The position numbers and the translations under genes were made by a program. Positions 5,913 through 63,918 of a stretch of DNA of 64,000 nt are shown here, one piece after another. The notes below the pieces were generated by a model that was not told where the DNA came from, did not search any database, and saw only the letters and a list, made by a program, of their open reading frames with translations. Origin of the DNA: Candidatus Nomurabacteria bacterium (GTDB lineage Bacteria; Patescibacteriota; Minisyncoccia; Phycocordibacterales; UBA9973); the NCBI GenBank assembly GCA_943350445.1, contig CALRAE010000001.1, positions 29,561-93,560 of the forward strand, in the 5' to 3' direction. Every line of letters starts with the position of its first letter. Position 1 is the first letter of the stretch.

Positions 5913-6122
5913 ATGACCACATTATCAATACCCGTGTCAGGGGATTTAGAAAAATTTATAGAAGGGATGGTTAAAGTTGGGAAAGGTTCAAACAAAGCTG
6001 ACGTCGTTCGACGTGCCTTACGTGAGTATCAAGAGAATGAAATAGTTAAAACTATTTTACAGGCTGAAAATGAGCCTACAATGAAAGGGGACTTACGCGA
6101 TTTAATGAAAAAATTCAAATAG
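5913..6122 (+). CDS. type II antitoxin, ribbon-helix-helix (ParD/CopG-like)
   Basis: 69 aa; N-terminal beta-strand then KADVVRRALREY helix typical of RHH; 4-nt gap to the downstream toxin. Confidence 0.6.
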   Translation: MTTLSIPVSGDLEKFIEGMVKVGKGSNKADVVRRALREYQENEIVKTILQAENEPTMKGDLRDLMKKFK

Positions 6123-6126
6123 TCCG

Positions 6127-6387
6127 ATGATTCAGATATCTTTTAAACCGACTTTCGTAAAGCAAATGAATAAGCTTGAAAAAGCGTTGGTTGAAGAGGT
6201 GTTTGAAAAAATTGAATTATTTAAAAATAAGGAGAATCATAAGACACTAAAAGTTCACAAACTTCATGGTAAGTTAGCGGGATATTTCAGTTTCTCTCTG
6301 AATTATAAGTTTAGAATTGTATTTCTGTATGAATCGGGTAATCACGTTGTATTTCTTGATATTGGCGACCATGACTTATACAAGTAA
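6127..6387 (+). CDS. type II toxin, RelE/ParE superfamily (YafQ/StbE-like)
   Basis: 86 aa; H-K-L-x-G...FSFSLNYKFRIVF...VFLDIGDHDLYK matches the RelE/ParE fold signature. Confidence 0.7.
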   Translation: MIQISFKPTFVKQMNKLEKALVEEVFEKIELFKNKENHKTLKVHKLHGKLAGYFSFSLNYKFRIVFLYESGNHVVFLDIGDHDLYK

Positions 6388-8620: not shown

Positions 8621-8651
8621 TTGTATTCGAACCAACATTCATGTTATAATA
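8581..8651. repeat. direct repeat copy 1 (fusA 3' end plus intergenic ATGTTATAATA)
   Basis: 40 nt AAACAACGTGGCTGAAACTATTATTGCGGCGAGGAAGTAG recurs at 10038-10077 with 3 mismatches; downstream ATGTTATAATA block also recurs. Confidence 0.75.
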
Positions 8652-8656
8652 AATTC

Positions 8657-10039
8657 ATGAGTTTTGATTTACCACCTGAAGATGAAGTACCAAGAAAACG
8701 AACTCCTGAAGAGTTAGCTTCTTTACTTAGTGAAACACAAAATATCTCAGGAGATAATATATATGAATTAATGCTAAAAGCTAAAACTTCGTTAGAGCAT
8801 TCTTCCCCAGAACAAACACAAAAACTCCTTGAGTCTATTAAATTGGCTGCAAATGATATAATTGATAGACAAAATGGTTATCTGGTTAACCTTCGTAATA
8901 AAATAGATCTTTGTTTTGATATACTCCATAGGGCAATGCTTGAAAATGTAGTGCCAGGCAATCCATATAATGAAATATGTCAAAAATCGCTTGATTTTGT
9001 CTTTGAAAAACAGATCCAGCTTTCTTCGTTTCATCAAACTTTTACGGATTTAAACAGTAAGTTTTTAGAAATCGATGTTAGTGTTTCGGGATCAGAGGAA
9101 TTATCAAAAATGGCTGAGAAATTGATTGAAATACTTGCAAAGGAAAAAGCCGCGATGGACGAGTATATAGATGCTGTAGATAAGTTAAGTGTAAATGTGA
9201 AAGCCCGAGCTCTTTTTAAAGTTATGGAAAAACGGTCTGCCAATTCGGATGATCGAGGTGTTAAAGTTGACAATGTAGAAGCCGCATCCGTTAAAACCCC
9301 TACTCCAGATATAAAAAATGCGGGCGATAGAAACACTAAAGATGTATTAAGTAACGAATCCATAGTTAGACCTTCTTTGTCAGAATCATATGATCCTAGA
9401 TTGAATGAAGTTATAGAGAGATCAAAAAATGCGAGTGAGAAAATAAAAAACCAAGTTTTTAAGTTAACTCAAAGAAGATCTTTTTTTGAAAATAGCCTCA
9501 GAAAACATCTTGATTATATAAGAAGGGATTTTTCTTGGCTTATCAAAAATCCGGAAGATCAAATAGGGGGTGGGGAATATAAAGGTTGGACATCTGAAGA
9601 AATAAAGGAATACTATTTTGTATTATATGGAACAGATGACTTTCCAAAACAATCTGAGGTGCAGCCTTTAATGGGTCAGATTTTGGGTTCCAGGGAAAAA
9701 CATAATGAAAATATTGAAAACAGACAGCCTGATTCAGGAGTGGATATTTCAACAGAAACTCTTTTCGTGGACCTTGAAAAAGTTCAAAATGTAGAAGGTG
9801 CGTTTAATATTTTTCAAAAAGCTCATTTTCTGTTAGAAAAAGAAGGTGGTTTTTTTTCTAAAAAAAGAAAAGAACTTAGGGCTCTAAAAAAAGCGGCTCT
9901 TGCAAAAATGAGACAAGTTAGTGGGCTTTCGCTAGAAGATATATCCAGGATTGAATCAGGCTCGGATCTGGGAACTTCCCAATACAGAAGATATTTTTAT
10001 TTGGCAAAAAAACTTGGTATTCCACATAAATGGTTTTAA
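8657..10039 (+). CDS. hypothetical soluble protein inserted between fusA and tuf
   Basis: 461 aa from ATG 8657 (track gives TTG 8621); no TM, no signal peptide, no recognisable domain; acidic/helical. Confidence 0.5.
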   Translation: MSFDLPPEDEVPRKRTPEELASLLSETQNISGDNIYELMLKAKTSLEHSSPEQTQKLLESIKLAANDIIDRQNGYLVNLRNKIDLCFDILHRAMLENVVPGNPYNEICQKSLDFVFEKQIQLSSFHQTFTDLNSKFLEIDVSVSGSEELSKMAEKLIEILAKEKAAMDEYIDAVDKLSVNVKARALFKVMEKRSANSDDRGVKVDNVEAASVKTPTPDIKNAGDRNTKDVLSNESIVRPSLSESYDPRLNEVIERSKNASEKIKNQVFKLTQRRSFFENSLRKHLDYIRRDFSWLIKNPEDQIGGGEYKGWTSEEIKEYYFVLYGTDDFPKQSEVQPLMGQILGSREKHNENIENRQPDSGVDISTETLFVDLEKVQNVEGAFNIFQKAHFLLEKEGGFFSKKRKELRALKKAALAKMRQVSGLSLEDISRIESGSDLGTSQYRRYFYLAKKLGIPHKWF

Positions 10040-19540: not shown

Positions 19541-19617
19541 ACGAAGAAATAGAAATTGTGAGGCAAGACCTCACAACTAATTTTGGTATAACTGCATGAT
19601 TGTTATATAATGTTTAT

Positions 19618-20034
19618 ATGCCTGAGGATATGAAAATCCCCAATAGTTCTGAGATTGATCAAGCCTTAAGAGAGTTTGAGGCACAGTCACATCCTCTGGG
19701 TCAGACGACACAAAAAGCTCCTGAAGCTCCAAGGGTATCTGATACTTTTAAGACCGAAACAACAGGAATAAGTTTTGAAACTGACAGTCTTAAATCGATA
19801 AATAATGCCAACGAAATTGTTGTGCCCAGAATGGTAAGAATCGTGATGAAACTCTCTGGAGGAGCTATAAAAGAGCAAAAACAGGCAGAATATGTGCTTC
19901 TCGGCTTTGCTTTAGTGATATTCCTTATTTCGCTGTATTTGTTTTTTGGCGGAGGTGAACCTACTCAAAAAATTTCCAACGAAGAATCTGTACAAAACTA
20001 TAATAATTATTATGAAAATCTACATAAAAAATAA
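19618..20034 (+). CDS. hypothetical C-terminally membrane-anchored protein, paralog 1
   Basis: ~138 aa; shares conserved block MV(R/K)(I/L)VMKLSGGAIKEQ(K/R)QAEYVLLGF and C-terminal TM helix with 21221-21616; stop overlaps the pilin start. Confidence 0.45.
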   Translation: MPEDMKIPNSSEIDQALREFEAQSHPLGQTTQKAPEAPRVSDTFKTETTGISFETDSLKSINNANEIVVPRMVRIVMKLSGGAIKEQKQAEYVLLGFALVIFLISLYLFFGGGEPTQKISNEESVQNYNNYYENLHKK

Positions 20035-20548
20035 AAGAGGTTTCACTTTGATTGAACTTCTGGTGGTAGTTGCCATCATTGGTCTTTTGTCTTCTGTTAT
20101 ACTAGCTTCTTTAAATAGTGCTAGGAGTAAGGCAAGAGATGCAGTAAGATTGTCTGATATAAAACAAATTTCTAATGCATTGGAATTATATTATAGCAAT
20201 AATGGTGTATACCCTTCAGGCCAATTTTTAAGTATTAAAAATACTTCTGATCCTAATAGTGTTTGGCAATGTTGTGGTGGGAGTGCATTCATAGCAGCAT
20301 TAGCACCTTATTTACCAAAATTACCAATTGATCCAAAAAATAATGATGTAACTTGTTATGCAAATGGCGCTCATTTTTACACTTATCAATCATTTAACGC
20401 AGGGAAAAATTATGGAATATATGCTTCACTTGAAAATCCAAAAGCGGGTGCAGCAGACCCAGCTAATTACCCCTGTTGTGCGACGTCTGCTCCCGGCAAC
20501 TGTATGTATAAAGCTACTAATGGAGGGGTGGGAATTGTTCCAAATTAA
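20012..20548 (+). CDS. type IV pilin-like protein (prepilin)
   Basis: MKIYIKNKRGFTLIELLVVVAIIGLL is a class III signal peptide (G-FTLIE); C-terminal Cys pair. Confidence 0.75.
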   Translation: MKIYIKNKRGFTLIELLVVVAIIGLLSSVILASLNSARSKARDAVRLSDIKQISNALELYYSNNGVYPSGQFLSIKNTSDPNSVWQCCGGSAFIAALAPYLPKLPIDPKNNDVTCYANGAHFYTYQSFNAGKNYGIYASLENPKAGAADPANYPCCATSAPGNCMYKATNGGVGIVPN

Positions 20549-20608
20549 TTTGACTAATTACCTCCAAAAGCTCGCAAAGCTCGCAAGAAGCTCGCAAGGA
20601 CTGTCCTT

Positions 20609-21136
20609 TTGCACTCCGTCAGCCAAACGGCAGACGGAGGCTACGTCCTCGGTGGACTCTCTTGGTCCGGAGTTTCAACCAACAAGTCAGACCCAAGCTA
20701 CGGCTTCGGGGATTACTTGGTGGTCAAGCTTGATGCCTCCGGCAACAAGCAGTGGGACAAGACTTTCGGCGGGTCTGACACCGACGAACTCACCTCCCTT
20801 CAGCAGACCGCTGACGGAGGATTCATTCTCGGTGGATGGTCATGGTCGGGTGTCTCCGGCAACAAGACGACCGCCAACATTGGGGTCTCAAGTTTCTGGG
20901 TCATCAAACTCGACCCTCCACCATCCCTCAGTCTTTCCGCAGTCGGGAAGACAAATGGGTTCAATGCATTCAGGTTGAGTGGGCCTGCCGGGTCTTACTC
21001 GATCCGGGCATCGACGAACTTCGTTAACTGGGTGCCTCTTACGAGCATCACCCTTGACGGCACGAACGCTACTGTCTTCGTGGACACGCAGTCCACGAAC
21101 TACCCCTCTCGGTATTACCGGGCGGTGGGGCAGTAA
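20609..21136 (+). pseudogene. high-GC fragment encoding a beta-propeller (SBBP-like) repeat protein remnant
   Basis: Repeats TADGG(Y/F)(V/I)LGG.SWSGVS.NK; GC ~55-58% versus ~38% flanks; no credible N-terminus or signal peptide; alternative-frame ORF spans the same DNA. Confidence 0.5.
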
Positions 21137-21220
21137 GCCTTCATCTATCACATCGAACGGGCTCTCCTTTTTAGGGGGGCCCTGTTTTGTTTTTTATAAG
21201 AATGAGTATATAATTTATTT

Positions 21221-21616
21221 ATGGATGAACAATTAAACCTTCAGGGAAATGCAGAGATAGATGCGGCCTTGAAAGAATTTGAAGCCAAGTCTAGTCCTCA
21301 AGCTGTGACTAATAATCCTATAGCACCTGGGATTTCTAGTGTTCCCAAAATGCCAACATCCGGTATTAGTTTTGATACCGATAATTATAGATCTATAAAT
21401 AAAGAAGAGGTTCCTTTACCAAAGATGGTTAAGCTTGTTATGAAGCTTTCTGGTGGAGCGATAAAAGAACAACGACAAGCCGAATATGTCCTGTTGGGGT
21501 TTGTTGCTATAATAATTAGTATTTCCGTCTATTTATTTTTTGGTGCAAATGGATCTCGTCAATCATCTTTTTCTCCGTCTACTGAGCAAATGATGAAAGC
21601 GGGACAGAATAGATAA
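21221..21616 (+). CDS. hypothetical C-terminally membrane-anchored protein, paralog 2
   Basis: 131 aa; paralog of 19618-20034 with the same conserved block and architecture. Confidence 0.45.
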   Translation: MDEQLNLQGNAEIDAALKEFEAKSSPQAVTNNPIAPGISSVPKMPTSGISFDTDNYRSINKEEVPLPKMVKLVMKLSGGAIKEQRQAEYVLLGFVAIIISISVYLFFGANGSRQSSFSPSTEQMMKAGQNR

Positions 21617-21621
21617 AAAAT

Positions 21622-22119
21622 ATGAAATTTTTAAACAAAAATAAAGGTTTTACTTTAATAGAGCTTCTCGTGGTGGTGGCTATCATTGGGCTTCTGGCTT
21701 CTGTTGTTTTGGCAAGTTTGAGTACTGCGAGGGGTAGAGGAAGGGATGCAAAGAGACTTCAAGATATGAATCAGGTTCGTACTGCCCTGGAACTTTACAA
21801 CAGTACAAATAATGCATATCCTAGTACTGGCGGTGCTTGGTGGGGTGTTTGCCCAGCATTTCAAAGCAAAGGAACATCTGGTTTTGGTGGGTACATTCCT
21901 GATCTAGCTCCAACATATATTCCTATTTTACCAACTGAACCAAAACCCACAGCTAATAATACTTGCTATGTTTACCGTTCTGATGGTAGGGATTATATTT
22001 TCTTAGTCTATTTAACTGTAGAGGGCAACATACCGAACTCGTTAAAACGTCCCGGTATTTGGTCAGCCGAGAAGGATTATGCTATTTATACTTCAGCGTC
22101 AGTAGTAGCAGGTTGGTAG
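21622..22119 (+). CDS. type IV pilin-like protein (prepilin)
   Basis: MKFLNKNKGFTLIELLVVVAIIGLLASVVL class III signal peptide. Confidence 0.75.
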   Translation: MKFLNKNKGFTLIELLVVVAIIGLLASVVLASLSTARGRGRDAKRLQDMNQVRTALELYNSTNNAYPSTGGAWWGVCPAFQSKGTSGFGGYIPDLAPTYIPILPTEPKPTANNTCYVYRSDGRDYIFLVYLTVEGNIPNSLKRPGIWSAEKDYAIYTSASVVAGW

Positions 22120-22276: not shown

Positions 22277-22462
22277 ATGGCAAAAACATCAGTTATCGCA
22301 AGATCACTTAAAAAGCCCAAGTTTAGCACTCGACAAAAAAATCGATGTTTTCGATGTGGCCGAGGCAATGCTTTCATGCGAGACTTCGGTATTTGCCGTA
22401 TCTGTTTTAGAGAATTAGCAAACGAAGGAATGCTTCCAGGAGTCCGTAAATCAAGCTGGTAG
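22277..22462 (+). CDS. rpsZ: 30S ribosomal protein S14, zinc-binding type Z
   Basis: 61 aa; [22 protein letters not shown] contains the Cys4 motif. Confidence 0.85.
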
Positions 22463-26647: not shown

Positions 26648-27328
26648 ATGCAAGAAACAATAGTAATTTCACTTGGTGGATCATTGATCGTACCCGAAGA
26701 GATAGATAAGGATTTTCTAAAAGAATTTAAAGATTTAATTCTTTCGAACGTCGCACAAGGGAAAAGGTTTTTAATTGATACGGGTGGAGGCAGAACTTGC
26801 CGAAAGTATCAGAATGTTGCAAAGGAGATTTCTCAAGCCTCAGATATAGATTTAGATTGGATTGGAATTGCTACGAATAATCTAAATGCGGAACTTCTTC
26901 GAGTTATTTTTGGTAAAAGTGCGCAAAGTAAAGTGATTTACGATCTTTCTAAAACATTTCCGTTAGAAAGTCCAATTGTCATAGGTGGTGCATATGAGCC
27001 TGGGCATAGTTCAGACATTGATGCTGTTTTGGCGGCTAAAACACTTGGTGCTAAAAAAATAATTAATTTATCAAACACTGACTATGTATATGACTCTGAC
27101 CCAAAAAAGAATCCAAATGCAAAAAAGATAGAAACAATTTCTTGGGCAAAATACCGTGCGCTTATTCCTGCTGAATGGACATCTGGTCTTAATACTCCTT
27201 TTGATCCTATAGCCTCGAAAATGGCAGAAGAAGAGGGTATCTCGGTAATGATTATGAATGGCAAACCCATCAATAATCTAGCTAAATGTTTAAATGGTGA
27301 GAAGTTTCTGGGTACAATAATTTCTTAG
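26648..27328 (+). CDS. pyrH: UMP kinase, archaeal-type (amino-acid kinase fold)
   Basis: 226 aa; GGSLIVPEE...IDTGGGRTCRKY...PGHSSD...NTDYVYDSDPKKNPNAKKI aligns motif-by-motif with archaeal PyrH. Confidence 0.7.
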   Translation: MQETIVISLGGSLIVPEEIDKDFLKEFKDLILSNVAQGKRFLIDTGGGRTCRKYQNVAKEISQASDIDLDWIGIATNNLNAELLRVIFGKSAQSKVIYDLSKTFPLESPIVIGGAYEPGHSSDIDAVLAAKTLGAKKIINLSNTDYVYDSDPKKNPNAKKIETISWAKYRALIPAEWTSGLNTPFDPIASKMAEEEGISVMIMNGKPINNLAKCLNGEKFLGTIIS

Positions 27329-27333
27329 TAGTT

Positions 27334-28104
27334 ATGATAATAATAAAGACCAAAGAAGAAATAGAAATACTGCGTGAGGGAGGCAAGCGTCTCGCGACTA
27401 TACTATACAAGGTGAAAGAAATGGTGAAGCCTGGTGTTTCCACCAAGGATTTAGATTTATACGCAGAAAAATTAATTCGTGGAATAGGAGATGTCCCAGC
27501 TTTTTTAAATTATCGTCCAGCTGGAGCCAATACACCCTTTCCTGCGTCTTTGTGTGTTTCTGTGAATGAAGAAGTGGTTCATGGTATTCCAAGTGAAGAG
27601 AAAATATTAAAAGAAGGGGACATAGTATCGATTGATTTGGGTTTAAAACACAGGGGGCTTTTTACTGATATGGCTATTACTGTCGGGGTGGGGGCTGTGA
27701 GTCCAGCTAGTCAAAAGTTGATGGATGTGACAGAGAAGGCATTGCAGGTGGGTATAGACGCTGCGATGGGAGGCAATACAGTCGGGGACATTGGTCATGC
27801 GGTAGAGAGTTTCGTGCGTGGGCAAAAGGGCCTGACCTACGGCATTGTGGAAGTTCTTTCCGGACATGGGGTGGGTAAAGCGATACATGAAGATCCATAT
27901 ATTCCGAATTTTGGTAAAGCTGGCAAGGGCGCAAAACTAGTTCCGGGCATGGTAGTCGCCCTAGAGCCGATGTTGAACAATGGTACAAAGAATGTAACAC
28001 TCGATGAAGATGGCTACACTTTTCGCACCGCGGACGGTAAAAAAAGCGCTCATTTTGAGAAGACGATACTGATAACTGAAGGTGAAGCAGAGGTTTTTAC
28101 CTAA
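27334..28104 (+). CDS. map: methionine aminopeptidase type I
   Basis: 256 aa; pita-bread fold motifs (VHGIP, DIVSIDLG, HGVGKAIHE). Confidence 0.9.
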   Translation: MIIIKTKEEIEILREGGKRLATILYKVKEMVKPGVSTKDLDLYAEKLIRGIGDVPAFLNYRPAGANTPFPASLCVSVNEEVVHGIPSEEKILKEGDIVSIDLGLKHRGLFTDMAITVGVGAVSPASQKLMDVTEKALQVGIDAAMGGNTVGDIGHAVESFVRGQKGLTYGIVEVLSGHGVGKAIHEDPYIPNFGKAGKGAKLVPGMVVALEPMLNNGTKNVTLDEDGYTFRTADGKKSAHFEKTILITEGEAEVFT

Positions 28105-28132
28105 ATTTATCTTTTTGTTATATAATTAACCT

Positions 28133-30898
28133 ATGCAAGGATCCTTTTTTAAGGAGATGCCAAAGTTTAAGACTCCAGAAGAGGAGCTTGGTTATTTGCG
28201 TGCTCATGTCGCTAAACGCGAACAAGAATTAATCCAAATAGGTCATTTTGAAAATGCGAAAGAAAATGCAGTCCATGATGTTGTGGGAGCTTATAAAGAA
28301 ATTCCATCTGAACAAGTGGTGCATGATAGCCACATCATAAATCAAAAAGAAGCACAGGGGATAGTGTTGGCTCTAAAGCCGGAATCTCATGATAATGTGA
28401 TGGAAGAGCTTCTCGGTATTGTCATTACCAAAGGCATCAAGAATGCACTTAGAGTGGTAGAAGTCATGGGTAATCCCCACATCGATGATGATTTTCATAG
28501 ACTTTTAATTCAATATTTAAAAAATGGACAAATAATAACAGATCTAAAAGAGGGCACACCCTTACACAAATCACTCAATATGACGCTTTTTGAAATAACT
28601 CTTCCGCCACCCACAGAGCAAGCTGATAAGTCAAAAGGTTTTAAGGAATTCATTGGCGCGATGGAACAGTTTTATGCCGGCATGCAGTCTATATCTGTAG
28701 ACAAAAGAAATGAAAAAGAGATTTATTTTACCCTAGAAGTTGCTCTTTCAAATGAGAGTGATGCAGTAGTTGTCTATGCTGGAATTCCAAATAAATATAT
28801 CTCACTTTTTGAAAAACAAATTCTAGCTTTCTATCACGATGCAAAAGTTCATGAGATTACTGATGATTATAATATTTTTAATGACAATGGCGCATCTGTT
28901 GGGGCCTATGCGCATCTTGCAGAGCGTGGTGTGATGCCCATCAAGACTTATGACAATATAGAGCATGATCCAATGAATACTATACTAAATGTTTTTTCTC
29001 AACTAAAGACCAAGGGTGAGGGTGCAGCGATTCAGCTCATAGTGGCACCTGCTGGTGATAAATTTATAAATGAATTTCATTTAATATTAGACGATGTAAA
29101 AGATGGAATGTCTGTTAAACATTCAGCAGACAACTTCTATAAATTTAATAGTGCATTTCTCAAAGCTGGCAAAGAACTTCTCTTTGGTATAAGAAAAACG
29201 CCAGAAGAAAAGAAAGAAAAAAATATGAAAGGTAGACGTGCGGTAGACGAGGGTGCGGCCGAAAAAATAGGAAATAAAATAAAAAGCACTATTATGAAGG
29301 CGAATATTCGTGTTATCGCCTCTGGTGGGACAAAAGAACGCGCAGAAGCTATACTACAAGAAATAAAATCTTCTTTTAATCAATTTACTGAAGCAGCGAG
29401 TAATTCATTTATTTTTGAAGAAGCTCGCGGAAGTGATTTAAAAAAGCTTTTCCATGATTTTTCCTATCGTGCTTTTTCGGGGGATAAAGTTATGCCACTT
29501 AACTTAAAAGAGCTTGCATCTGTATTTCATTTCCCAGTTGGTATAGGTAGTCAGCCACAATTAAAAGAGGCAAAAGCTGGCATCGCGCCAGCGCCAATGG
29601 AGATGGGTCAGCAAGGAATAGTTCTGGGTATAAACAGCTATCGAGGTAAAGACACTGAGATTCATCTTGCACGTGAAGACAGGCTGAGGCATTGCTATGT
29701 TATCGGTCAGACGGGTACAGGTAAGACAAATATAATGCTGAACATGATAACTCAAGATATCAAAAATGGTGATGGGTGTTGTTATGTTGATCCACACGGT
29801 ACAGATATTCAGACTATCCTTTCTCGTATTCCAAAGGAACGCATCGATGATGTTATCTATTTTGACCCTGCTTATACGGCCCGACCGATGGGTCTCAACA
29901 TGTTGGAATTTGATCCAAAATATCCTGAACAAAAAACTTTCGTAGTAAACGAAATGATGGGAATTTTCAATAAACTTTTTGATATGAAAGTGGGTGGCGG
30001 AGCAATGTTTGAACAATATTTTAGAAATAGCGCGTTCTTGGTGATGGAAGATCCAGAATCTGGTTCTACTTTACTTGAAATCACGCGAGTGCTCGGGGAT
30101 AAAACGTTTCGTGATATGAAGCTTGCTAAATGCAAGAACCCAATCATTAAACAATTCTGGGTTTCGGCTGAGCAGACGACGGGGGATCAATCTCTCGCGA
30201 ACTTCGTGCCTTACATTTCTTCTAAATTTGACAATTTTATCAGCAACGATATCATGCGTCCGGTTGTGCTCCAGCAAAATTCTGTCTTCAATTTTCGTAA
30301 GATTATGGATGAGAAGAAAATATTACTAGTCAATCTTTCTAAGGGAAGACTTGGTGATATAAATGCGAATCTTATCGGTCTGGTGCTTGTCGGTAAAATC
30401 CAAATGGCAGCACTTTCTCGAGTTGATATGTTCGGTAAGCCGATGAATGATTTTTATCTATATATAGATGAGTTCCAAAATGTAACTACCGACTCAATAG
30501 CTTCTATATTGTCGGAAGCGAGAAAATATAGACTCTCGCTGAACATTGCCCATCAATACATCAGCCAGCTCGAAGAAAAGATAAAAAATGCAGTTTTCGG
30601 TAACGTCGGCTCAATGGCTGTTTTCCGTGTCGGCACAGAAGACGCGACTTTCTTAGAGGCAAAATTTAAACCCCAATTTACTGCCCAAGATATCACCAAG
30701 CTTGATAATTACAATGCTTATATGAGCATGCTGGTAAATGGTCAGCCGACCAAGCCTTTTAACTTAAAAACCCTTGCGCCAGAGAAGGGCAACATGGACA
30801 TCGTCGACAGCCTAAAAGAGCTTTCATATATAAAGTACGGCAGAGAAAGGGAAGAAGTAGAAGCTGAAATTATGGCGAGGTATAAGTCGATGGAGTAG
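28133..30898 (+). CDS. large soluble ATPase with TraD/TrwB/VirD4-like (type IV coupling protein) C-terminal domain and ~480-aa N-terminal region of unknown function
   Basis: Walker A CYVIGQTGTGKTN, then VDPHG, Walker B LYIDEFQN, then RKYRLSLNIAHQYISQL (TrwB-like). No TM helices predicted. Confidence 0.6.
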   Translation: MQGSFFKEMPKFKTPEEELGYLRAHVAKREQELIQIGHFENAKENAVHDVVGAYKEIPSEQVVHDSHIINQKEAQGIVLALKPESHDNVMEELLGIVITKGIKNALRVVEVMGNPHIDDDFHRLLIQYLKNGQIITDLKEGTPLHKSLNMTLFEITLPPPTEQADKSKGFKEFIGAMEQFYAGMQSISVDKRNEKEIYFTLEVALSNESDAVVVYAGIPNKYISLFEKQILAFYHDAKVHEITDDYNIFNDNGASVGAYAHLAERGVMPIKTYDNIEHDPMNTILNVFSQLKTKGEGAAIQLIVAPAGDKFINEFHLILDDVKDGMSVKHSADNFYKFNSAFLKAGKELLFGIRKTPEEKKEKNMKGRRAVDEGAAEKIGNKIKSTIMKANIRVIASGGTKERAEAILQEIKSSFNQFTEAASNSFIFEEARGSDLKKLFHDFSYRAFSGDKVMPLNLKELASVFHFPVGIGSQPQLKEAKAGIAPAPMEMGQQGIVLGINSYRGKDTEIHLAREDRLRHCYVIGQTGTGKTNIMLNMITQDIKNGDGCCYVDPHGTDIQTILSRIPKERIDDVIYFDPAYTARPMGLNMLEFDPKYPEQKTFVVNEMMGIFNKLFDMKVGGGAMFEQYFRNSAFLVMEDPESGSTLLEITRVLGDKTFRDMKLAKCKNPIIKQFWVSAEQTTGDQSLANFVPYISSKFDNFISNDIMRPVVLQQNSVFNFRKIMDEKKILLVNLSKGRLGDINANLIGLVLVGKIQMAALSRVDMFGKPMNDFYLYIDEFQNVTTDSIASILSEARKYRLSLNIAHQYISQLEEKIKNAVFGNVGSMAVFRVGTEDATFLEAKFKPQFTAQDITKLDNYNAYMSMLVNGQPTKPFNLKTLAPEKGNMDIVDSLKELSYIKYGREREEVEAEIMARYKSME

Positions 30899-30949: not shown

Positions 30950-31423
30950 ATGAATAAACCAAATCATGAAAAATCTTTAATAATATTAAAGCCAGATGCA
31001 ATACAGAGAAATTTGATAGGAGAGATAGTCGGCCGTTTTGAAAGAAAAGGTCTTAAAATCATTGGTATGAAAATGATGAGTATCGAAACAGTTCTATTGG
31101 AAGAACATTATGCGCACATAAAAGACAAGCCATTTTTCCCAGGAGTTAGGGATTTTATGAAATCTTGTCCTGTTATAGTTATGGCTTTGGAGGGCATTAA
31201 CGCAATATCAGCGATCCGTTTGATAGTTGGTCCTACCAAGGCTTGGGAAGCTACTGCTGGCACTATCCGTGGAGATTTTTCTCTATCTACTCAATCAAAC
31301 ATTGTTCATGCATCAGAATCTGTAGAAGCTGGCGAGTCTGAAGTAAAACGTTTCTTCCAGAAAGACGAAATATTTGAGTATAAGAAAATTGACACTGATT
31401 TTATATACGCAGAGCACAAATAA
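30950..31423 (+). CDS. ndk: nucleoside diphosphate kinase
   Basis: 157 aa; NIVHASES active-site His region. Confidence 0.9.
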   Translation: MNKPNHEKSLIILKPDAIQRNLIGEIVGRFERKGLKIIGMKMMSIETVLLEEHYAHIKDKPFFPGVRDFMKSCPVIVMALEGINAISAIRLIVGPTKAWEATAGTIRGDFSLSTQSNIVHASESVEAGESEVKRFFQKDEIFEYKKIDTDFIYAEHK

Positions 31424-31509: not shown

Positions 31510-31666
31510 AGGGTTATTTCCGGTTATTACCTAGACACTAATTTATGGGAGAGTCGATCGTATTAAACCTTGGTTTAATACGTCTCTCACCCACCTAGCT
31601 ATAAGCTATGGTAATACATCTGAAATAGTCCTAAGAAGTACCCCCGATTTTACGGGGTTTTTTCTT
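31510..31666 (+). ncRNA. candidate ~155-nt structured RNA (sRNA or cis-regulatory leader) ending in an intrinsic terminator
   Basis: Strong promoter; rod-like nested pairing (UAUUACCUAG/CUAuGGUAAUA outer, GGGAGAG/CUCUCaCCC middle, 11-bp CGUAUUAAACC/GGUUUAAUACG inner); terminator CCCCCG-auuuua-CGGGG then U6; no ORF. Confidence 0.35.
31640..31666 (+). terminator. intrinsic terminator
   Basis: CCCCCG-attttA-CGGGG stem followed by TTTTTT. Confidence 0.6.
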
Positions 31667-31700: not shown

Positions 31701-32105
31701 ATGGGCAGACAAAAGCTGATAAAACCACTGATATACCTCATTTCCTTTATTTTTATAACGAATTTCTTAGCTAATAAGTTCTACTGGTATTCAGCTGTAT
31801 CATATTTCGACATGATCATGCATTTTCTGGGCGGATTTTGGGTTGCTCTACTTTGTGTCTATCTTTATCCCTTCAAAGAAAAATCTCCAAATGTAGTTCT
31901 TGAAGTACTTGCTTTTGTCTTACTTGTCGGGGTCGGATGGGAGATCTACGAAATGTTGGTTAATAGCGTTGCGGCCCAAAACCCTTTTGATTATTTAGAT
32001 ACAGGTTCCGATTTGTTTTTTGATTTATTTGGTGGGTCAATGGCCATTTTTTATTTTTATAAAAGAATTATGTTTGCTAAAGAAAATGGGGTACAATTAA
32101 AATAA
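31701..32105 (+). CDS. hypothetical membrane protein, possibly VanZ-like
   Basis: 134 aa, 4 TM; DYLDTGSDLFFDLFGG resembles the VanZ motif; weak. Confidence 0.3.
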   Translation: MGRQKLIKPLIYLISFIFITNFLANKFYWYSAVSYFDMIMHFLGGFWVALLCVYLYPFKEKSPNVVLEVLAFVLLVGVGWEIYEMLVNSVAAQNPFDYLDTGSDLFFDLFGGSMAIFYFYKRIMFAKENGVQLK

Positions 32106-33469
32106 TGGAAAAGACTGCAAAAATAACGTTTTGTGGAGGGACTGGTTCTGTAACAGGAGCGAATTTCCTCTTCGAAGTTGATGGTAAGAAAATTTTGGTT
32201 GATTGTGGTCTTACTCAGGGGACGAAAGTGGCGGATGATATAAACTGGGATCCTTTTCCCTATGATTCAGGACAAATAGACACCCTTTTTATCACCCATG
32301 CACATGTGGATCATTTAGGGCGTGTCCCTAAACTTATCAGTGAAGGATTTCGCGGGAAAATTTATTCTACCGAGCCTACACGCGGTCTTGCGGGTCCAAT
32401 GCTCGAAGATACTGCGGGGATATTGTCGAAAAATACGGAACTGCATTTAGATAAAATTTATTCTCCGGAGAACATTAAATTAGCGCTTTCTTTATGGCAA
32501 GGATTTAAATATCACGAAACAATAAAGATAACTCCAAACTTGGAAGTGTCTTTTTGGGATGCTGGGCATATATTGGGTTCAGCCATGGTTTTGTTTAGTT
32601 ATAATAGCAAACGTATTCTTTTTACTGGAGATTTAGGCAATAGTCCTTCGCCGATTCTTCCTGACACCGAAATTGTCCCAAATGTGGATTATTTAATAAT
32701 GGAGTCTGTTTATGGTGATAGAAATCATGAATCACGAGATGATCGTATAAAGTTTTTAGAGGAAACAATTGAAGATAATTATAAAAGGAAGGGGACGCTC
32801 ATTATACCTACTTTTTCCCTTGAACGTTCTCAGGAATTACTTTTCGAACTTAATTCCTTGGTGGAAAATAATAGAATTCCTGTGATGCCTATTTTCCTTG
32901 ATTCCCCACTCGCTATTCGTTTGACGGAAGTTTTTAAGCAATTTAAAAGTTATTTAAATGAAAATGCGCAACATGCAATGAAAAGTGATAAGTACCTTTT
33001 TGATTTTCCAGGCCTTCATAGCACCTTAAAATCAGAAGAATCAAAAATGATAGGTAATGTTACTAATCCAAAGATAGTCATTGCTGGTAGTGGAATGTCG
33101 ACTGGTGGACGTGTGGTGCATCATGAAAGGCATTACTTGCCTGATCCAAACAATACTCTTCTTTTGACAGGGTATCAGGCTGTAGGTAGTCCTGGACGTT
33201 TAATTCAAGAAGGGGTTAAAACAGTGCGTATAACGGGTGAAGATGTGATAGTTCGAGCACATATTGTGACAATTTTTGGGTATTCAGGGCATAAAGATTC
33301 CGATGGCTTAATGGCTTTTGTTGAAAATATGTCGGAAACATTAAAAAAAGTTTTTGTGGTTATGGGTGAACCTAAATCAGCAATGTTTCTAGTGCAGAAA
33401 CTTAGAGATAATTTAGGAATCAACGCATCTGCGCCAGAACAGGGGGATAGTGTAACAATTGTTTGTTAG
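32105..33469 (+). CDS. beta-CASP family MBL-fold ribonuclease (RNA-metabolising metallo-beta-lactamase)
   Basis: 454 aa; HAHVDHLG motif with downstream beta-CASP D and H motifs. Confidence 0.75.
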   Translation: MEKTAKITFCGGTGSVTGANFLFEVDGKKILVDCGLTQGTKVADDINWDPFPYDSGQIDTLFITHAHVDHLGRVPKLISEGFRGKIYSTEPTRGLAGPMLEDTAGILSKNTELHLDKIYSPENIKLALSLWQGFKYHETIKITPNLEVSFWDAGHILGSAMVLFSYNSKRILFTGDLGNSPSPILPDTEIVPNVDYLIMESVYGDRNHESRDDRIKFLEETIEDNYKRKGTLIIPTFSLERSQELLFELNSLVENNRIPVMPIFLDSPLAIRLTEVFKQFKSYLNENAQHAMKSDKYLFDFPGLHSTLKSEESKMIGNVTNPKIVIAGSGMSTGGRVVHHERHYLPDPNNTLLLTGYQAVGSPGRLIQEGVKTVRITGEDVIVRAHIVTIFGYSGHKDSDGLMAFVENMSETLKKVFVVMGEPKSAMFLVQKLRDNLGINASAPEQGDSVTIVC

Positions 33470-33472
33470 ATA

Positions 33473-34078
33473 ATGTATAATGTTATTATGGAACCTTTGT
33501 TAAATACTAAACACGGACATAATCAGATAAAGATTTGCGTTTCTGGCGCTGCTGAGACTGGTCACTGTGGGGTAGATGCTTTAGAAAAAGCAAAAGAACT
33601 CGGACGTGAAATTGCTCGCCAAGGTGCTGTGCTAGTGACTGGAGCGACGAATGGTTTCCCAATGTGGGCTGCAATCGGTGTTAAAGAAGTAGGTGGGATT
33701 TCTATTGGTATATCTCCAGCAGCTTCCGAAAAAGAACATGTTCAAGTTTACAAACTCCCTCTTGATTATATGGATTTGATTATGTATACCGGTTTTGGAT
33801 ATCCTGGAAGGGATTTACTCCTAACTCGTTGCGCTGACGCAGTCATCTGCGGTTGTGGGCGCATTGGCACTATCCACGAGTTTACTATTGCCTTTGAGGA
33901 CAATAAGCCTATCGGTATTTTTGAAGGACCATGGGAAATGGGTGATCAGCTTAAAGAAATTATTGACAAAGGACATCGTCCTAATACTAAAATTATTATA
34001 GGTAATAACCCGAAGAAAATAGTAGAAGATTTAATTGCATTAGTTAAGAAAGATAAAATAGCTGAATACAAAGTATAA
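33473..34078 (+). CDS. LOG/TIGR00725-like Rossmann-fold protein
   Basis: VLVTGATNGFPMWAAIGVKEVGGISIGISP and TGFGYPGRDLLLTRCADAVICGCGRIGTIHE resemble LOG-family motifs. Confidence 0.45.
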   Translation: MYNVIMEPLLNTKHGHNQIKICVSGAAETGHCGVDALEKAKELGREIARQGAVLVTGATNGFPMWAAIGVKEVGGISIGISPAASEKEHVQVYKLPLDYMDLIMYTGFGYPGRDLLLTRCADAVICGCGRIGTIHEFTIAFEDNKPIGIFEGPWEMGDQLKEIIDKGHRPNTKIIIGNNPKKIVEDLIALVKKDKIAEYKV

Positions 34079-56027: not shown

Positions 56028-57173
56028 ATGGATAATCCGTTAAAAAAATTCTTCTCTAGTTTTAGTAACTTAGGAGGCGGTGCTGATAGTAGCGCCGTTG
56101 GTGTTGATATAGGTTCTTCTGCGATTAAGATTGTCGAGATTAAGGTTAAGCGAGGGAGGGCAATACTTGAAACCTATGGAGCAATATCCCTTGGTCCCTA
56201 TGACGGCCTCGATTTTGGACGTGTTGCAAATCTTTCAGTTGAAAAAACAGCTGAAGCGCTAAAAGAAGTTATTAAACAATCTGGAGCCACCACTTCATCT
56301 CCGGCTTTTTCTATTCCCGTCCAATCAAGTTTAATTTTCACTATAGACTTACCAGCTTCTGTGAAAGAAAGTGAGCTGGCATCTATAGTACCAACAGAAG
56401 CTCGCAAATATATTCCAGTACCGATCACTGAGGTTTCACTGGACTACTTCATGTTGCCTCAGAAAGAGTCTTCTTTTGAAGAAATGAATAGTTCTTCAAA
56501 TAATAATAGCGCTAGTGTTCCACAAAAAAAGTTAGACAAGACAAATGTTCTTGTGGTCGCTACACAAAATGACGCTATATCTAAATACCGTGCAATCATT
56601 TCTCAATGTTCTCTCTCTGCTTCTTTTTTTGAGATTGAAATATTTTCTTCAATTAGGGCAAATTTTGAACATGAACTCTCTCCGGTCTTGCTCATGGATT
56701 TTGGTGCATCACGAACCAAGCTTTCTGTTGTCGAATTTGGCATGGTGAGGAGTTACCATACGATAGAGCGCGGAGGCGCCGAGATTTCGCAATCCATCTC
56801 TCAATCGTTAAGTATTCCTTTCTCTGAGGCAGAAAAAATGAAAAAGGAATTTGGCCTTTTCGATAACCCAGTAGAAAAAAGTCTAGCTGATATTATCAGA
56901 ATTCACACGGATTATATTTTCTCTGAGACAAACAACGCATTGGCAGAATATGAAAAGAGATATAATAGGGCAATAAGCAAGGTGATATTTACTGGCGGCG
57001 GGTCTCTCTTAAAGGGGCTCAAGGAAGTGGCAGCAAATAATTTTAGAGTAGAGATAGAAGTCGGTTTGCCGTTCTCTAAGGTTAATGCTCCTGCATTTCT
57101 CGAAAAAGTTCTCGAAACCATGGGTGCTGAGTTTGCTGTTGCGCTTGGTTTAGCACTCAGAAAACTAAAATAA
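56028..57173 (+). CDS. pilM: type IV pilus assembly protein PilM
   Basis: 381 aa; actin-like ATPase fold motif GVDIGSSAIK. Confidence 0.85.
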   Translation: MDNPLKKFFSSFSNLGGGADSSAVGVDIGSSAIKIVEIKVKRGRAILETYGAISLGPYDGLDFGRVANLSVEKTAEALKEVIKQSGATTSSPAFSIPVQSSLIFTIDLPASVKESELASIVPTEARKYIPVPITEVSLDYFMLPQKESSFEEMNSSSNNNSASVPQKKLDKTNVLVVATQNDAISKYRAIISQCSLSASFFEIEIFSSIRANFEHELSPVLLMDFGASRTKLSVVEFGMVRSYHTIERGGAEISQSISQSLSIPFSEAEKMKKEFGLFDNPVEKSLADIIRIHTDYIFSETNNALAEYEKRYNRAISKVIFTGGGSLLKGLKEVAANNFRVEIEVGLPFSKVNAPAFLEKVLETMGAEFAVALGLALRKLK

Positions 57174-57293
57174 GCTTTTCCTGCAGAGATTTTACGGTAT
57201 TTGGGGCTAAACGTCGTATGCTGGCCTTTCCAACGTCGGAGTTATACACATTATGCTTTTGTTATCTATTGTTTTGTAATATAATAAGGTACA

Positions 57294-57890
57294 ATGGAGC
57301 AGAATTTTCAAACATCATTCATTCCCAAAAAACCTATGGTGGAAGAGCGCGTGGCTGTCGTGCGCTCCGTAAGCCTATTTTCGATTCTTAGTATTTTTAT
57401 TTTATTTACTGTTATCTTATCGACGGGTGGTCTTTATTTGTACAAAGATAATATTGCAAAAAATATTACTCAAAAAGAAAATGAGTTAAATTTAGCAAAG
57501 AATCGTTTTGAACCCTCTAAAATAAAAGAGCTTCAAGTTTTAGACAAAAGATTGCGAGCTTCAACAGAGATTTTATATAATCATGTGGCCATCACGCCCA
57601 TTTTTAAAGCATTACAGGCTATGACTATGAAGACTGTTCGTTATACTAAATTTGGCTATACTCTAGGAAATGAGAAAAGTGTAAAAGTTGTTATAAAGAT
57701 GAGTGGCTTGGCAGTCGGATACCGTTCTATTGCCTTACAGTCAGATCTTTTTGCAAAAGATAAGAACTTAATCGAGCCAATATTTTCCAACCTTACTCTT
57801 GATGAAAAAGGTAATGTTCTTTTCGAGTTAGAATTTTCGGTCGATCCATCATTTGTTAATTATAAGCAGACACTTTTAACACAAAATTAA
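57294..57890 (+). CDS. pilN: PilN-like pilus assembly protein
   Basis: 198 aa; N-terminal TM then coiled coil; position after pilM. Confidence 0.5.
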   Translation: MEQNFQTSFIPKKPMVEERVAVVRSVSLFSILSIFILFTVILSTGGLYLYKDNIAKNITQKENELNLAKNRFEPSKIKELQVLDKRLRASTEILYNHVAITPIFKALQAMTMKTVRYTKFGYTLGNEKSVKVVIKMSGLAVGYRSIALQSDLFAKDKNLIEPIFSNLTLDEKGNVLFELEFSVDPSFVNYKQTLLTQN

Positions 57891-57894
57891 TTTT

Positions 57895-58494
57895 ATGATG
57901 AGATTCGTAATACCGGCAATTTTAATAGGAATAAGCTTCACTCTTTTTTTTGTATTTACTAATCCAATGTACACCAGCGTCGGTTTACAGCAAGCCCAAC
58001 TCAGGTCTTACAATGAAGCTCTTGATAATTCTAAAAAGCTTGAGAATAAGCGTGATTTACTGACTGCTAAAGCAAATTCTATTGATCGCAATGACTTAAT
58101 GAACTTAGGCAAACTCTTACCTAATAACATTGACAATATACGTTTGATTCTTGAGATAGGGCAGATCGCTTTACCTTATGGTATGGTCTTAAAAGATGTT
58201 AAATATAGTTCAACTGACGTTGATACTTCAAAGCCTGCCGCCCTTGGTATTCAAGGAGGTGTTGTGGCCAAGACCCCAAGTAAGGAATACGGTATTTGGG
58301 ATCTAGAGTTTTCGACAGTGGGTAGTTATGATAATTTTCTTAATTTTACAAAAGATCTAGAGAATAATCTTCGCATTGTAGACATATCTTCTATTTCTTT
58401 CGCTTCAGATGTGAATAGTGGACCTTCGGCTGGTACTTCTGCCGCATCTTATACTTACAATTTCAAGATTAAAACTTATTGGCTGAAGAATTAA
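57895..58494 (+). CDS. pilO: PilO-like pilus assembly protein
   Basis: 199 aa; N-terminal TM plus periplasmic domain; operon position. Confidence 0.45.
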   Translation: MMRFVIPAILIGISFTLFFVFTNPMYTSVGLQQAQLRSYNEALDNSKKLENKRDLLTAKANSIDRNDLMNLGKLLPNNIDNIRLILEIGQIALPYGMVLKDVKYSSTDVDTSKPAALGIQGGVVAKTPSKEYGIWDLEFSTVGSYDNFLNFTKDLENNLRIVDISSISFASDVNSGPSAGTSAASYTYNFKIKTYWLKN

Positions 58495-58502
58495 AATAAA
58501 AA

Positions 58503-58892
58503 ATGTCAAAAATAAAGAACATAATAGTATTGGTTGTAGTTGGAGCAATTCTTGTTGCTGTCTATTTTTTATATATAAAGAAAGATCCTTCTGAATCAGC
58601 CAACTTAATCTCTTCTTCTTTAGATCCCACAGCCTCAAATGGTGTGGTGGGCGCTACTATTACTTCAATCAGTCAAGATTTCCTCACATTACTTTTAGGT
58701 GTTAAAGATATAAATTTAGTTGACTCAATTTTCGCTGATACTGCATTTACTAGCTTGGATGGTTCTCATAGTATTTTACTTACACCAGATGGAACTGAGG
58801 GTAGATTAAACCCTTTTGCGCCACTTGGAACTGATGCTACTGTTCCACCAATCACCCCTACAACATCACCACTAACACCTTCTACGAATTAA
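58503..58892 (+). CDS. small membrane-anchored pilus operon protein (PilP-like?)
   Basis: 129 aa; TM helix then Ser/Thr/Pro-rich tail. Confidence 0.25.
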   Translation: MSKIKNIIVLVVVGAILVAVYFLYIKKDPSESANLISSSLDPTASNGVVGATITSISQDFLTLLLGVKDINLVDSIFADTAFTSLDGSHSILLTPDGTEGRLNPFAPLGTDATVPPITPTTSPLTPSTN

Positions 58893-58899
58893 TTAAATT

Positions 58900-60639: not shown

Positions 60640-60719
60640 ATTGAGTTATGCACACAAGTGTTCAATTTTACATAGTTGTATAGTATAATAAAGTATTGCT
60701 TAAAAATTAATGAAAATAT

Positions 60720-61121
60720 ATGGAAGGTGAAAAAAGTAAAATTTTAATAGTTGATGACGACAGCTTTCTGTTGGATATGTATGCTCTAAAGTTTAGCCAG
60801 AACAATTTTGAAGTTCACACTGCAAATGGTGGCGTTCAAGCGATCGAGAAATTAAAAGGTGGCCTAGCTCCTGATATTATGTTGATGGACGTTATTATGC
60901 CGGAGATGGATGGTTTTGAGATGTTGCAAAAGATAAATTCTGAAAAATTGTCTCCAAATTCTATTAAAATTGTATTATCTAATAAAAGTCAGCAGTCTGA
61001 TATCGATGAAGGGAATAGATTAGGGGTGTCTGGTTACATAGTAAAGGCAAATTCCACTCCAGTGGAAGTTATAAATCAAGTGGTAAGTATTTTGAGCAAA
61101 AAAGGAGCAGCTCTAAAATAA
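60720..61121 (+). CDS. single-domain response regulator (CheY/PilH-like)
   Basis: 133 aa; REC with DD...MLMDVIMPEMDG...K. Confidence 0.8.
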   Translation: MEGEKSKILIVDDDSFLLDMYALKFSQNNFEVHTANGGVQAIEKLKGGLAPDIMLMDVIMPEMDGFEMLQKINSEKLSPNSIKIVLSNKSQQSDIDEGNRLGVSGYIVKANSTPVEVINQVVSILSKKGAALK

Positions 61122-61125
61122 AATC

Positions 61126-62184: not shown

Positions 62185-62190
62185 AAAAAT

Positions 62191-63399: not shown

Positions 63400-63546
63400 A
63401 ATATGGGTGTGGATAACTCTCTTGCACAAATGCCTTTTTGTATATGATATAATTTAGGTATTAAAAAATAAGTCGAAATTTCAGCCTTATCGGCTGACTC
63501 GCCGATTGGGTGAGATTATTAATTGTTGTTAAATAAAAAATATATT

Positions 63547-63918
63547 ATGAAGAAAATGAATTTTAAGAAAGGTTTTACATTGATCGAACTTTTGGTGGTT
63601 GTCGCTATTATCGGCATCTTGGCTTCAGTTGTGTTGGCTAGTTTGAATACAGCAAGAACAAAGGGTCAAGCTGCAGCTTTTAAGGCTGAGATGTCTAGCT
63701 TGCGTACAAATATAACTCTCCTTTGTGATGGTTGGACTACTGGAGCTACGCAACCTACATTTCCTGGAGGAAGTACTTTTGCTGCTCCTACTGGTGTTAT
63801 ATGTACTGGTAGTGGTGCAGGAACTGCCACTATTACACCCGCTACTGGTAAAGGAGGCGCTTGTACATCAGCAATTGTAAATGAAACTTCAGTCACACTT
63901 GCTCCTATCAATTGTTAG
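63547..63918 (+). CDS. type IV pilin (major pilin candidate)
   Basis: MKKMNFKKGFTLIELLVVVAIIGILASVVL class III signal peptide; Thr/Gly/Ala-rich C-terminal domain with Cys pair. Confidence 0.8.
   Translation: MKKMNFKKGFTLIELLVVVAIIGILASVVLASLNTARTKGQAAAFKAEMSSLRTNITLLCDGWTTGATQPTFPGGSTFAAPTGVICTGSGAGTATITPATGKGGACTSAIVNETSVTLAPINC

Follow-up and report, generated by a model that had tools for sequence, protein, structure and literature searches.

In the 64,000-nucleotide stretch of contig CALRAE010000001.1 of a Candidatus Nomurabacteria bacterium that was analysed here, called the window in what follows, positions 28133-30898 of the forward strand form one unbroken open reading frame (ORF) with an ATG start, 921 codons and a stop. 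As more than 2,000 homologues were scored and an exhaustive search, with representatives taken at 50% identity, gave 4,987 with E ≤ 1e-30, this ORF is not due to chance. Its product, referred to below as the target, ends in a cytoplasmic P-loop motor that belongs to the type IV coupling protein (T4CP; VirD4/TrwB) branch of the FtsK-HerA superfamily, preceded by a DUF8128 domain and, at the N-terminus, by a fused partner domain. The surrounding gene order is rpsE-rplO-secY-adk-(amino-acid-kinase-like)-map-target-ndk-DUF2238 protein-beta-CASP RNase-LOG-like gene, and the guanine plus cytosine (GC) content of the target gene shows no deviation from that of its flanks. Coordinates are given in Table 1.

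Table 1. Coordinates within the window of the target, its parts and its two immediate neighbours (HMM, hidden Markov model).
Feature	Position	Strand	Basis or remark
Complete ORF: fusion of partner domain, DUF8128 and T4CP-type ATPase	28133..30898	+	ORF, Pfam annotation, AlphaFold2 model
Fused copy of the ~140-residue 'c2' protein, helical; residues ~13-131	28169..28525	+	c2 HMM; model helices at 15-131
DUF8128 (PF26449), alpha/beta, predicted VirB4-N-domain-like fold; residues ~144-480	28562..29572	+	Pfam, alignments, Foldseek
T4CP-type (TrwB/VirD4) nucleotide-binding domain; residues ~495-921	29615..30895	+	Pfam, family profile, structure match
Walker A GQTGTGKT; residues 525-532	29705..29728	+	G525, G528, G530 and K531 invariant in 50 diverse homologues
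All-helical insertion between Walker A and Walker B; residues ~600-703	29930..30241	+	Model secondary structure; equivalent to the T4CP all-alpha domain
Walker B region FYLYIDEFQN; residues 774-783	30452..30481	+	D779 and E780 invariant (50 homologues)
RKYRLSLNIAHQYISQL; residues 797-812	30521..30568	+	Profile-aligned to TrwB GRKAGLRVVAGLQSTSQL; R797, K798, Q808 and Q812 invariant
map (methionine aminopeptidase)	27334..28104	+	Upstream neighbour, 28 bp from target; synteny lineage-specific
ndk	30950..31423	+	Downstream neighbour of target

Domains of the target

An earlier reading of this DNA, made from its letters and ORF translations (the sequence-only reading), had listed a series of ATPase motifs, and every one of them occurs in the same order between residues 525 and 812, with GQTGTGKT at residue 525, VDPHG at 552, IDEFQN at 778, RKYRLS at 797, AHQ at 806 and SQL at 810-812. 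Its assignment of the C-terminal ~430 residues to a T4CP ATPase was borne out by several lines of evidence. The target scored above the Pfam cut-offs, but marginally, for TraG-D_C (PF12696; 26.7 bits vs. 22) and TrwB_AAD_bind (PF10412; 22.9 vs. 20.5). Among 50 diverse homologues, each of the two models matched 48 at E ≤ 0.05, with a best E of 3e-13 for TrwB_AAD_bind, and T4SS-DNA_transf (PF02534) matched 26 (best E 3e-12). When a family profile was compared with solved structures, TrwB (2e-7) and DotL (1.7e-5) were the best relatives, and the alignment to TrwB paired the Walker A, DPxG and Walker B motifs as well as the RK...Q..SQL segment. On this alignment, residues 797-812 likely correspond to the arginine-finger and sensor region. 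NCBIfam models for TraD and TrbC produced partial matches far under the cut-off (48 bits vs. 366), and the VirB4 sequence models CagE_TrbE_VirB, P-loop_TraG and AAA_10 did not match the target; AAA_10 matched 10 of the 50 homologues, weakly.

The AlphaFold2 model of the 921-residue target (mean predicted local distance difference test score 87.5) gave a similar picture. Residues ~480-921 superposed on TrwB (E 7e-12, template modelling score (TM-score) 0.62-0.67, root-mean-square deviation 5-6 Å) over the whole of soluble TrwB, which lacks the first 70 residues, with the helical insertion included, and the C-terminal half also superposed on DotL and Cag-beta. The target shares with TrwB, VirD4, TraD and DotL both the catalytic motifs and an ATPase fold that includes the all-alpha insertion. 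In contrast, canonical T4CPs pass from an N-terminal transmembrane domain straight into the ATPase, whereas the target has ~480 extra N-terminal residues and no transmembrane helix. A hydropathy scan confirmed the lack of an N-terminal membrane anchor that had been proposed earlier, since the peak Kyte-Doolittle value over 19-residue stretches was 1.54 and fell within the ATPase core. Also unlike the canonical proteins, which are encoded with relaxase or type IV secretion system (T4SS) genes, the target is unlinked to such genes.

The ~480 residues ahead of the ATPase had been described as a region with no recognisable domain, and this description did not hold, as they contain DUF8128 at ~144-480 and a fused copy of a small protein at ~13-131. 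DUF8128 (PF26449) is present as a precomputed Pfam annotation on an identical protein, encoded on a metagenomic contig of 94 kb, and on all 120 homologues listed, its boundaries in the target being drawn from alignments; distant relatives start aligning at residue ~140-200. When a model of the N-terminal region was searched with Foldseek, the sole significant matches among solved structures were 14 TrwK/VirB4 chains (E 1.6e-5 to 1.8e-3), no HerA match was obtained, and the viral matches included gp156 of phage G and its VirB4-like gp155 (Pfam P-loop_TraG, AAA_10). With the full-length model, ~880-905 columns were aligned to TrwK/VirB4 at E 4e-14, a remote likeness with a TM-score of about 0.3. 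Within the region considered unrecognisable, residues ~144-480 thus resemble the N-terminal domain of VirB4, and the resemblance in fold between modelled DUF8128 and that domain is new here. VirB4 (TrwK of R388) and the target have a two-domain layout in common; they differ in that the ATPase of the target is of T4CP type by sequence and the structural likeness is remote, and genes for VirB3, VirB6 or VirB8 are adjacent neither to the target nor to its relatives at the 80 Patescibacteria loci examined.

The Patescibacteria family and its c2 partner

The best 120 of the more than 2,000 scored homologues were full length and 84-100% identical to the target. A scan of one genome per species gave at least 600 matches, from which the best 80 loci were fetched with ±8 kb flanks and their flanking ORFs clustered. 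All of these 80 that had an informative label came from Patescibacteria (Nomura-, Kaiser-, Adler-, Taylor-, Zambryski-, Moran-, Falkow-, Uhr-, Azam- and Vogelbacteria), and a few bore other taxon labels yet showed the same neighbourhoods. The nearest named relatives of the target belong to Candidatus Nomurabacteria and Paceibacteria. Identity to its orthologues (84, 77, 63-64 and ~50%) tracked that of SecY and the ribosomal proteins and was above that of adk and ndk, indicating that the target is a vertically inherited core gene.

Two main types of protein were distinguished among the 150 best representatives. In 77 of them an N-terminal membrane helix was present and no extra domain, whereas 22 had no helix, a Walker A motif located ~100 residues further downstream and an extra N-terminal domain (the fused type, to which the target belongs). 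The helix was found in every complete membrane-type locus. Membrane-type genes encode ~790-860 residues, and in 20 of the 31 informative loci they are preceded on the same strand by an ORF for a soluble protein of ~140 residues, here called c2; upstream of fused-type genes, c2 was found in none of 37 loci. An HMM built from 18 stand-alone c2 proteins found residues 13-127 of the target with an E of 7e-7 and, at values down to 6e-13, the N-terminal part of other fused-type proteins, these matches covering nearly all of the HMM, and an alignment revealed the conserved core KG...DP.h.D.FH. As c2 is a separate upstream gene in most relatives and is homologous to the N-terminus of the target, this N-terminus is the product of a gene fusion, a classic signal that c2 and the ATPase work together. 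A protein of intermediate layout (P0165, 977 residues) carries a c2 domain, two membrane helices, DUF8128 and the ATPase.

The c2 family comprised 674 detected members, and those with a named source were labelled as Patescibacteria. Nearly all were unnamed or called 'hypothetical protein', with one entry labelled as an ATP-synthase b subunit; c2 has no Pfam domain, no sequence relative among solved structures and no membrane helix. Downstream of two c2 homologues, a protein of 786-790 residues with DUF8128 and T4SS-DNA_transf was encoded, either overlapping or at most 16 bp away. Loss of the membrane helix accompanies the fusion in this Nomurabacteria/Paceibacteria lineage. The c2 partner, which had not been annotated before, is new, as are the fusion and the helix loss. 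At six membrane-type loci (L057, L069, L071, L073, L079 and L082), c2 is replaced upstream by another protein, c23, of ~165 residues and without Pfam match, whose gene often overlaps the start of the ATPase gene. No relationship between c23 and c2 could be detected, and c23 was not retained as a c2 relative.

The map gene precedes the ATPase gene in ~17 of 39 fused-type loci and ndk comes next in ~17, other fused-type loci lie elsewhere, and none of the membrane-type loci follows map; the neighbours of the membrane-anchored relatives are unrelated (for example, PMT-family glycosyltransferases, prfB-ftsEX and RmuC). The target had been said to occupy the place of the alpha-operon tail. The genes concerned (infA, rpmJ, rpsM, rpsK, rpsD, rpoA and rplQ) are indeed absent from the whole window according to the ORF table and a motif scan, but the emphasis on a replacement was set aside, as the position after map in ~17 of 39 loci, all of the fused type, represents a lineage-specific synteny and not a trait of the family.

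Some relatives showed additional features. Five proteins (P0175, P0179, P0185, P0187 and P0198) reach 1,200-2,000 residues through disordered proline-, alanine- or glycine-rich tails, in which the motifs PPPIGAPPVDL and DITGGR/K recur, recalling the adaptor-binding C-terminal tails of coupling proteins. No clue was obtained from Pfam for these long variants or for the large proteins downstream of some relatives. In Moranbacteria-like loci, the module is preceded by a ~900-residue protein without Pfam match (L043, L051 and L077) and by a DUF5663 protein (L043, L051, L056 and L070), and a ~830-residue protein without Pfam match is encoded downstream on the opposite strand in L043, L051, L070 and L077, not in L056. 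These flanking proteins may be lineage-specific partners.

Relatives beyond Patescibacteria and the setting in the window

In the PHROGs collection, the target matched phrog_5156, a family of unknown function, with an E of 6.8e-80 over residues 149-921 and profile positions 27-812 of 824. A tblastn search identified 47 phage records, SPO1 (gp27.4), CP-51, JL, phage G (gp156) and TP-84 among them, at ~22% identity over residues ~196-913. The family HMM detected SPO1 gp27.4 at E 9e-61 and phage G gp156 at E 1e-87, neither of which has an N-terminal membrane helix. In SPO1, gp27.4 is followed by gp27.3, a relaxase-like nickase (Replic_Relax), and tiny membrane proteins and an actin-like partition protein are encoded upstream; in phage G, gp156 comes after a TrbL/VirB6-like gene and a VirB4-like gene. 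A 'DNA translocation operon' with a relaxase, a VirD4-like coupling ATPase without membrane helix, VirB6 and an MreB-like protein was described in 0305phi8-36 and SPO1, and it is dispensable in the laboratory (Pathria et al., 2012; PMC3357382). The phage ATPases (SPO1 gp27.4, phage G gp156 and 0305phi8-36 orf201) thus share full-length homology and the lack of a membrane helix with the target. In contrast to it, they belong to lytic Bacillus phages, lie beside genes for a relaxase-like nickase, an actin-like protein and VirB6- or VirB4-like proteins, and have no c2.

Relatives were also found in 409 records of a plasmid collection, mainly from Bacillus, Streptomyces, haloarchaea and Sulfolobus. 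On a 27.5 kb Bacillus subtilis plasmid, Pfam confirmed that the homologue is followed, in this order, by genes for a Replic_Relax relaxase, TcpC, TcpE, an AAA_10 VirB4-like ATPase and another 'conjugal transfer protein', and a 64.7 kb plasmid has a similar order by annotation. The homologues on both plasmids were detected by the family HMM (E 2e-87 and 2e-77, respectively), and neither has a membrane helix. These ATPases of Tcp-type Bacillus plasmids (NZ_CP154917.1 and NZ_OX419568.1), annotated as 'DUF87 domain-containing protein' and 885-913 residues long, resemble the target in the lack of a helix and in the homology of both the DUF8128-like N-terminal domain and the ATPase. They differ from it in being plasmid-borne, in having a relaxase gene directly next to them and in lacking a c2 domain, and are ~22-23% identical to it.

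As these homologues head conjugation operons, the family includes proteins that occupy the coupling-protein position of monoderm conjugation systems, and an anchor-less coupling ATPase with a large N-terminal domain is not unique to the target. That the orphan ATPases of Patescibacteria are linked to coupling ATPases encoded by plasmids and phages of Bacillus is new. On the other hand, the architecture itself is not, contrary to what had been proposed from the sequence: it is common to thousands of Patescibacteria proteins, with full-length homologues on Bacillus plasmids and in phages, and among coupling proteins it is a variant that is widespread, catalogued and in part described, not a new kind of system. 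MOB-suite typed 349 of the 409 plasmids with relatives as 'non-mobilizable'. Since two such Bacillus plasmids carry genes for a Replic_Relax relaxase, TcpC or TcpE and VirB4-like proteins (confirmed by Pfam on one of them), mobility may be under-called.

Regarding the immediate setting of the target, a terminator-like hairpin is located at 31642-31657, 3' of ndk, and as it comes only after this gene, the target and ndk may share a transcript with the ribosomal cluster. In the 28-bp spacer before the ORF (28105-28132), no Shine-Dalgarno sequence is obvious, and a TATAAT hexamer lies 8 bp 5' of the ATG. Both adk and map are members of the ordinary spc operon, and a gene of the amino-acid-kinase family (UMP-kinase-like, 26648-27328) is inserted between them; together with adk, ndk, the beta-CASP RNase gene (32105-33469) and the LOG-like gene (33473-34078), it makes up a nucleotide-handling neighbourhood in this lineage.

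Further features were detected elsewhere in the window. An insertion of ~2.6 kb (19600-22119) in the ribosomal operon, between rplE and a 61-residue zinc-type rpsN (22277-22462), holds two tandem pairs, each of a membrane protein of ~131-144 residues and a type IV pilin-like gene with an N_methyl motif, as well as a 175-residue ORF without Pfam match; the two small proteins are clear paralogues of each other. A type IV pilus cluster at 56028-63918, 25 kb downstream of the target and not linked to it in the other loci examined, encodes PilM, three small membrane ORFs, a PilB-like T2SSE ATPase, a response regulator, a PilT-like ATPase, a PilC-like T2SSF protein and a pilin. Between rpsG and fusA (5913-6387) there is a toxin-antitoxin-like pair, consisting of a 69-residue ORF and an 86-residue ORF with a weak, sub-threshold HigB/RelE-like match, and fusA and tuf of the str operon are separated by an inserted 472-residue ORF without Pfam match (8621-10039).

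A possible role in secretion and its alternatives

The T4SS of Patescibacteria is chromosomal and nested in the monoderm MPF-FATA class, and fusions of VirB3 with VirB4 are known (Quinonero-Coronel et al., 2025; PMC12102498). According to the tables of this survey, Nomurabacteria genomes contain a VirB2-VirB4-TrsD-VirB3 cluster and, unlinked to it, three or four T4CP hits. In S. epibionticum, the T4SS cluster is essential and has no recognisable coupling protein (PMC10633639). The T4CP homologues surveyed are, like the target, chromosomal, widespread, usually distant from virB4 and without a relaxase (PMC12102498), although the survey does not mention a DUF8128 N-terminal domain, c2, the fusion or the helix loss, and its hits may or may not include the DUF8128-ATPase family. 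The target is an orphan in that no VirB-type genes lie nearby, as the sequence-only reading had it, but in Patescibacteria unlinked T4CP homologues are the published norm (PMC12102498).

The best-supported role, which we consider somewhat probable, is that of a coupling-type ATPase, encoded at an unlinked locus, that would serve the T4SS of Patescibacteria and be held at this machine through its VirB4-like N-terminal domain and c2. By homology, the protein would assemble as a hexamer driven by ATP, and the motor would recruit a substrate, which could be DNA, RNA or protein, and pass it to, or push it through, a monoderm-type T4SS encoded elsewhere on the chromosome (VirB4, TrsD, VirB3, VirB6 and VirB2 pilins). 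Docking would take place via the VirB4-like domain and the fused partner and not via membrane helices of its own. In most Patescibacteria, a one-helix ATPase is made along with the small soluble c2 from the upstream gene; in this Nomurabacteria/Paceibacteria lineage, c2 has become the N-terminus of the ATPase by fusion and the membrane helix is gone.

Several observations weigh against this role. No VirB-type or other T4SS gene, relaxase gene or pilin-VirB2 gene was found in the window plus the next 9 kb of the contig, as anticipated by the sequence-only reading for VirB-type genes, and no secretion-system, relaxase or VirB2 gene recurred in the ±8 kb flanks of the 80 loci. When the ORFs of these loci were searched by phmmer, there was no match to Agrobacterium VirB3, B4, B6, B8, B11 or D4 and none to the phage proteins gp27.3 (the Replic_Relax nickase), gp27.8, gp153, gp154 and gp155; both results are limited evidence of absence, and the search with gp27.3, a single sequence, had limited sensitivity. 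In the published survey, VirB4 was present in 2,417 of 3,035 genomes vs. 2,918 with T4CP homologues, only 148 of 5,713 T4CP homologues were near virB4, relaxases were rare, and the T4CP homologue of S. epibionticum was non-essential though its secretion system is essential; its authors raise an exaptation of T4CPs, which in their words 'cannot be ruled out' (PMC12102498).

The main rival, which we regard as rather unlikely, is an exapted housekeeping motor that would descend from coupling proteins but act independently of the T4SS in translocation or remodelling of nucleic acids within the cell or at its membrane, such as uptake or processing of host DNA or RNA for nucleotide salvage, or chromosome handling. 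It agrees with the unlinked position of the gene in all Patescibacteria loci examined, with the soluble form in this lineage, with conservation at the level of ribosomal proteins and with the ~17 loci having nucleotide-handling neighbours (adk, UMP-kinase-like, ndk, beta-CASP RNase and LOG-like). However, part of this neighbourhood is expected anyway, adk and map being ordinary spc operon genes, ndk and the beta-CASP RNase gene are linked to the target in one sublineage only, and membrane-anchored relatives have unrelated neighbours. The greater number of genomes with T4CP homologues than with VirB4 and the dispensable homologue of S. epibionticum (PMC12102498) also fit such a motor, as does the reported feeding of Patescibacteria on host RNA, for which the uptake route is unresolved (bioRxiv 10.64898/2026.06.21.733656), whereas all four contexts inspected outside Patescibacteria (two Bacillus plasmids, SPO1 and G) adjoin relaxase or T4SS genes. 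A variant that retains the secretion system, in which c2 and the DUF8128 ATPase would pull host RNA or DNA in through a pilus-bearing T4SS as an importer feeding nucleotide salvage, would explain the ribosomal-level conservation, the missing relaxase and, in this lineage, the placement among adk, the UMP-kinase-like gene, ndk and the beta-CASP RNase gene, but we consider it improbable.

It is similarly doubtful that the target is a second, highly divergent VirB4-type ATPase powering assembly or pilus biogenesis instead of acting as a substrate receptor. The ~900-column alignment to full-length TrwK/VirB4 and an N-terminal domain that matches only VirB4 among solved structures point in this direction, and the small partner fused at the N-terminus recalls the VirB3-VirB4 fusions (PMC12102498), but c2 has no membrane helix, unlike VirB3, and VirB4 models found no match save the weak AAA_10 hits, vs. 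48 of 50 homologues for T4CP models. Moreover, a separate bona fide VirB4 is encoded in the same operon on the Bacillus plasmids and in phage G, with the homologue at the relaxase-side position. A defence role had been suggested in the sequence-only reading, and an anti-phage ATPase of HerA or MADS type would account for weak PADLOC matches to mad8 (6e-12, residues 519-834) and HerA (3e-7, Walker A region) and for the presence of HerA among the fold matches of the protein. These matches are explained by the shared FtsK-HerA ATPase core, to which those from PADLOC are confined, and the N-terminal domain differs from the barrel of HerA; across the 80 loci there is no recurrent defence partner such as a nuclease, Sir2 or methylase, and vertical inheritance, housekeeping synteny and ribosomal-like conservation are the opposite of a variable defence island, making this role very improbable. 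The remnant of an integrated conjugative element or prophage landed after map, which the full-length homologues on Bacillus plasmids and in Bacillus phages might suggest, is hardly credible, as genera whose proteins are 50-84% identical keep the gene at this position, it is near-universal and not patchy, its catalytic residues are all invariant, and neither an integrase or relaxase nor a repeat boundary or GC shift accompanies it. Synteny and conservation were the grounds for rejecting both the defence and the mobile-element readings.

A large part of bacterial diversity belongs to the host-dependent Patescibacteria, and the T4SS is essential in the sole species that is genetically tractable. 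A phylum-wide, slowly evolving orphan ATPase has now been tied to relatives with an informative context and assigned a VirB4-like N-terminal domain and, through the gene fusion, a partner protein, which together give a concrete candidate for the coupling function. Coupling proteins with a large soluble N-terminal domain and no anchor represent a broad and overlooked subclass across monoderm plasmids, phages and Patescibacteria.

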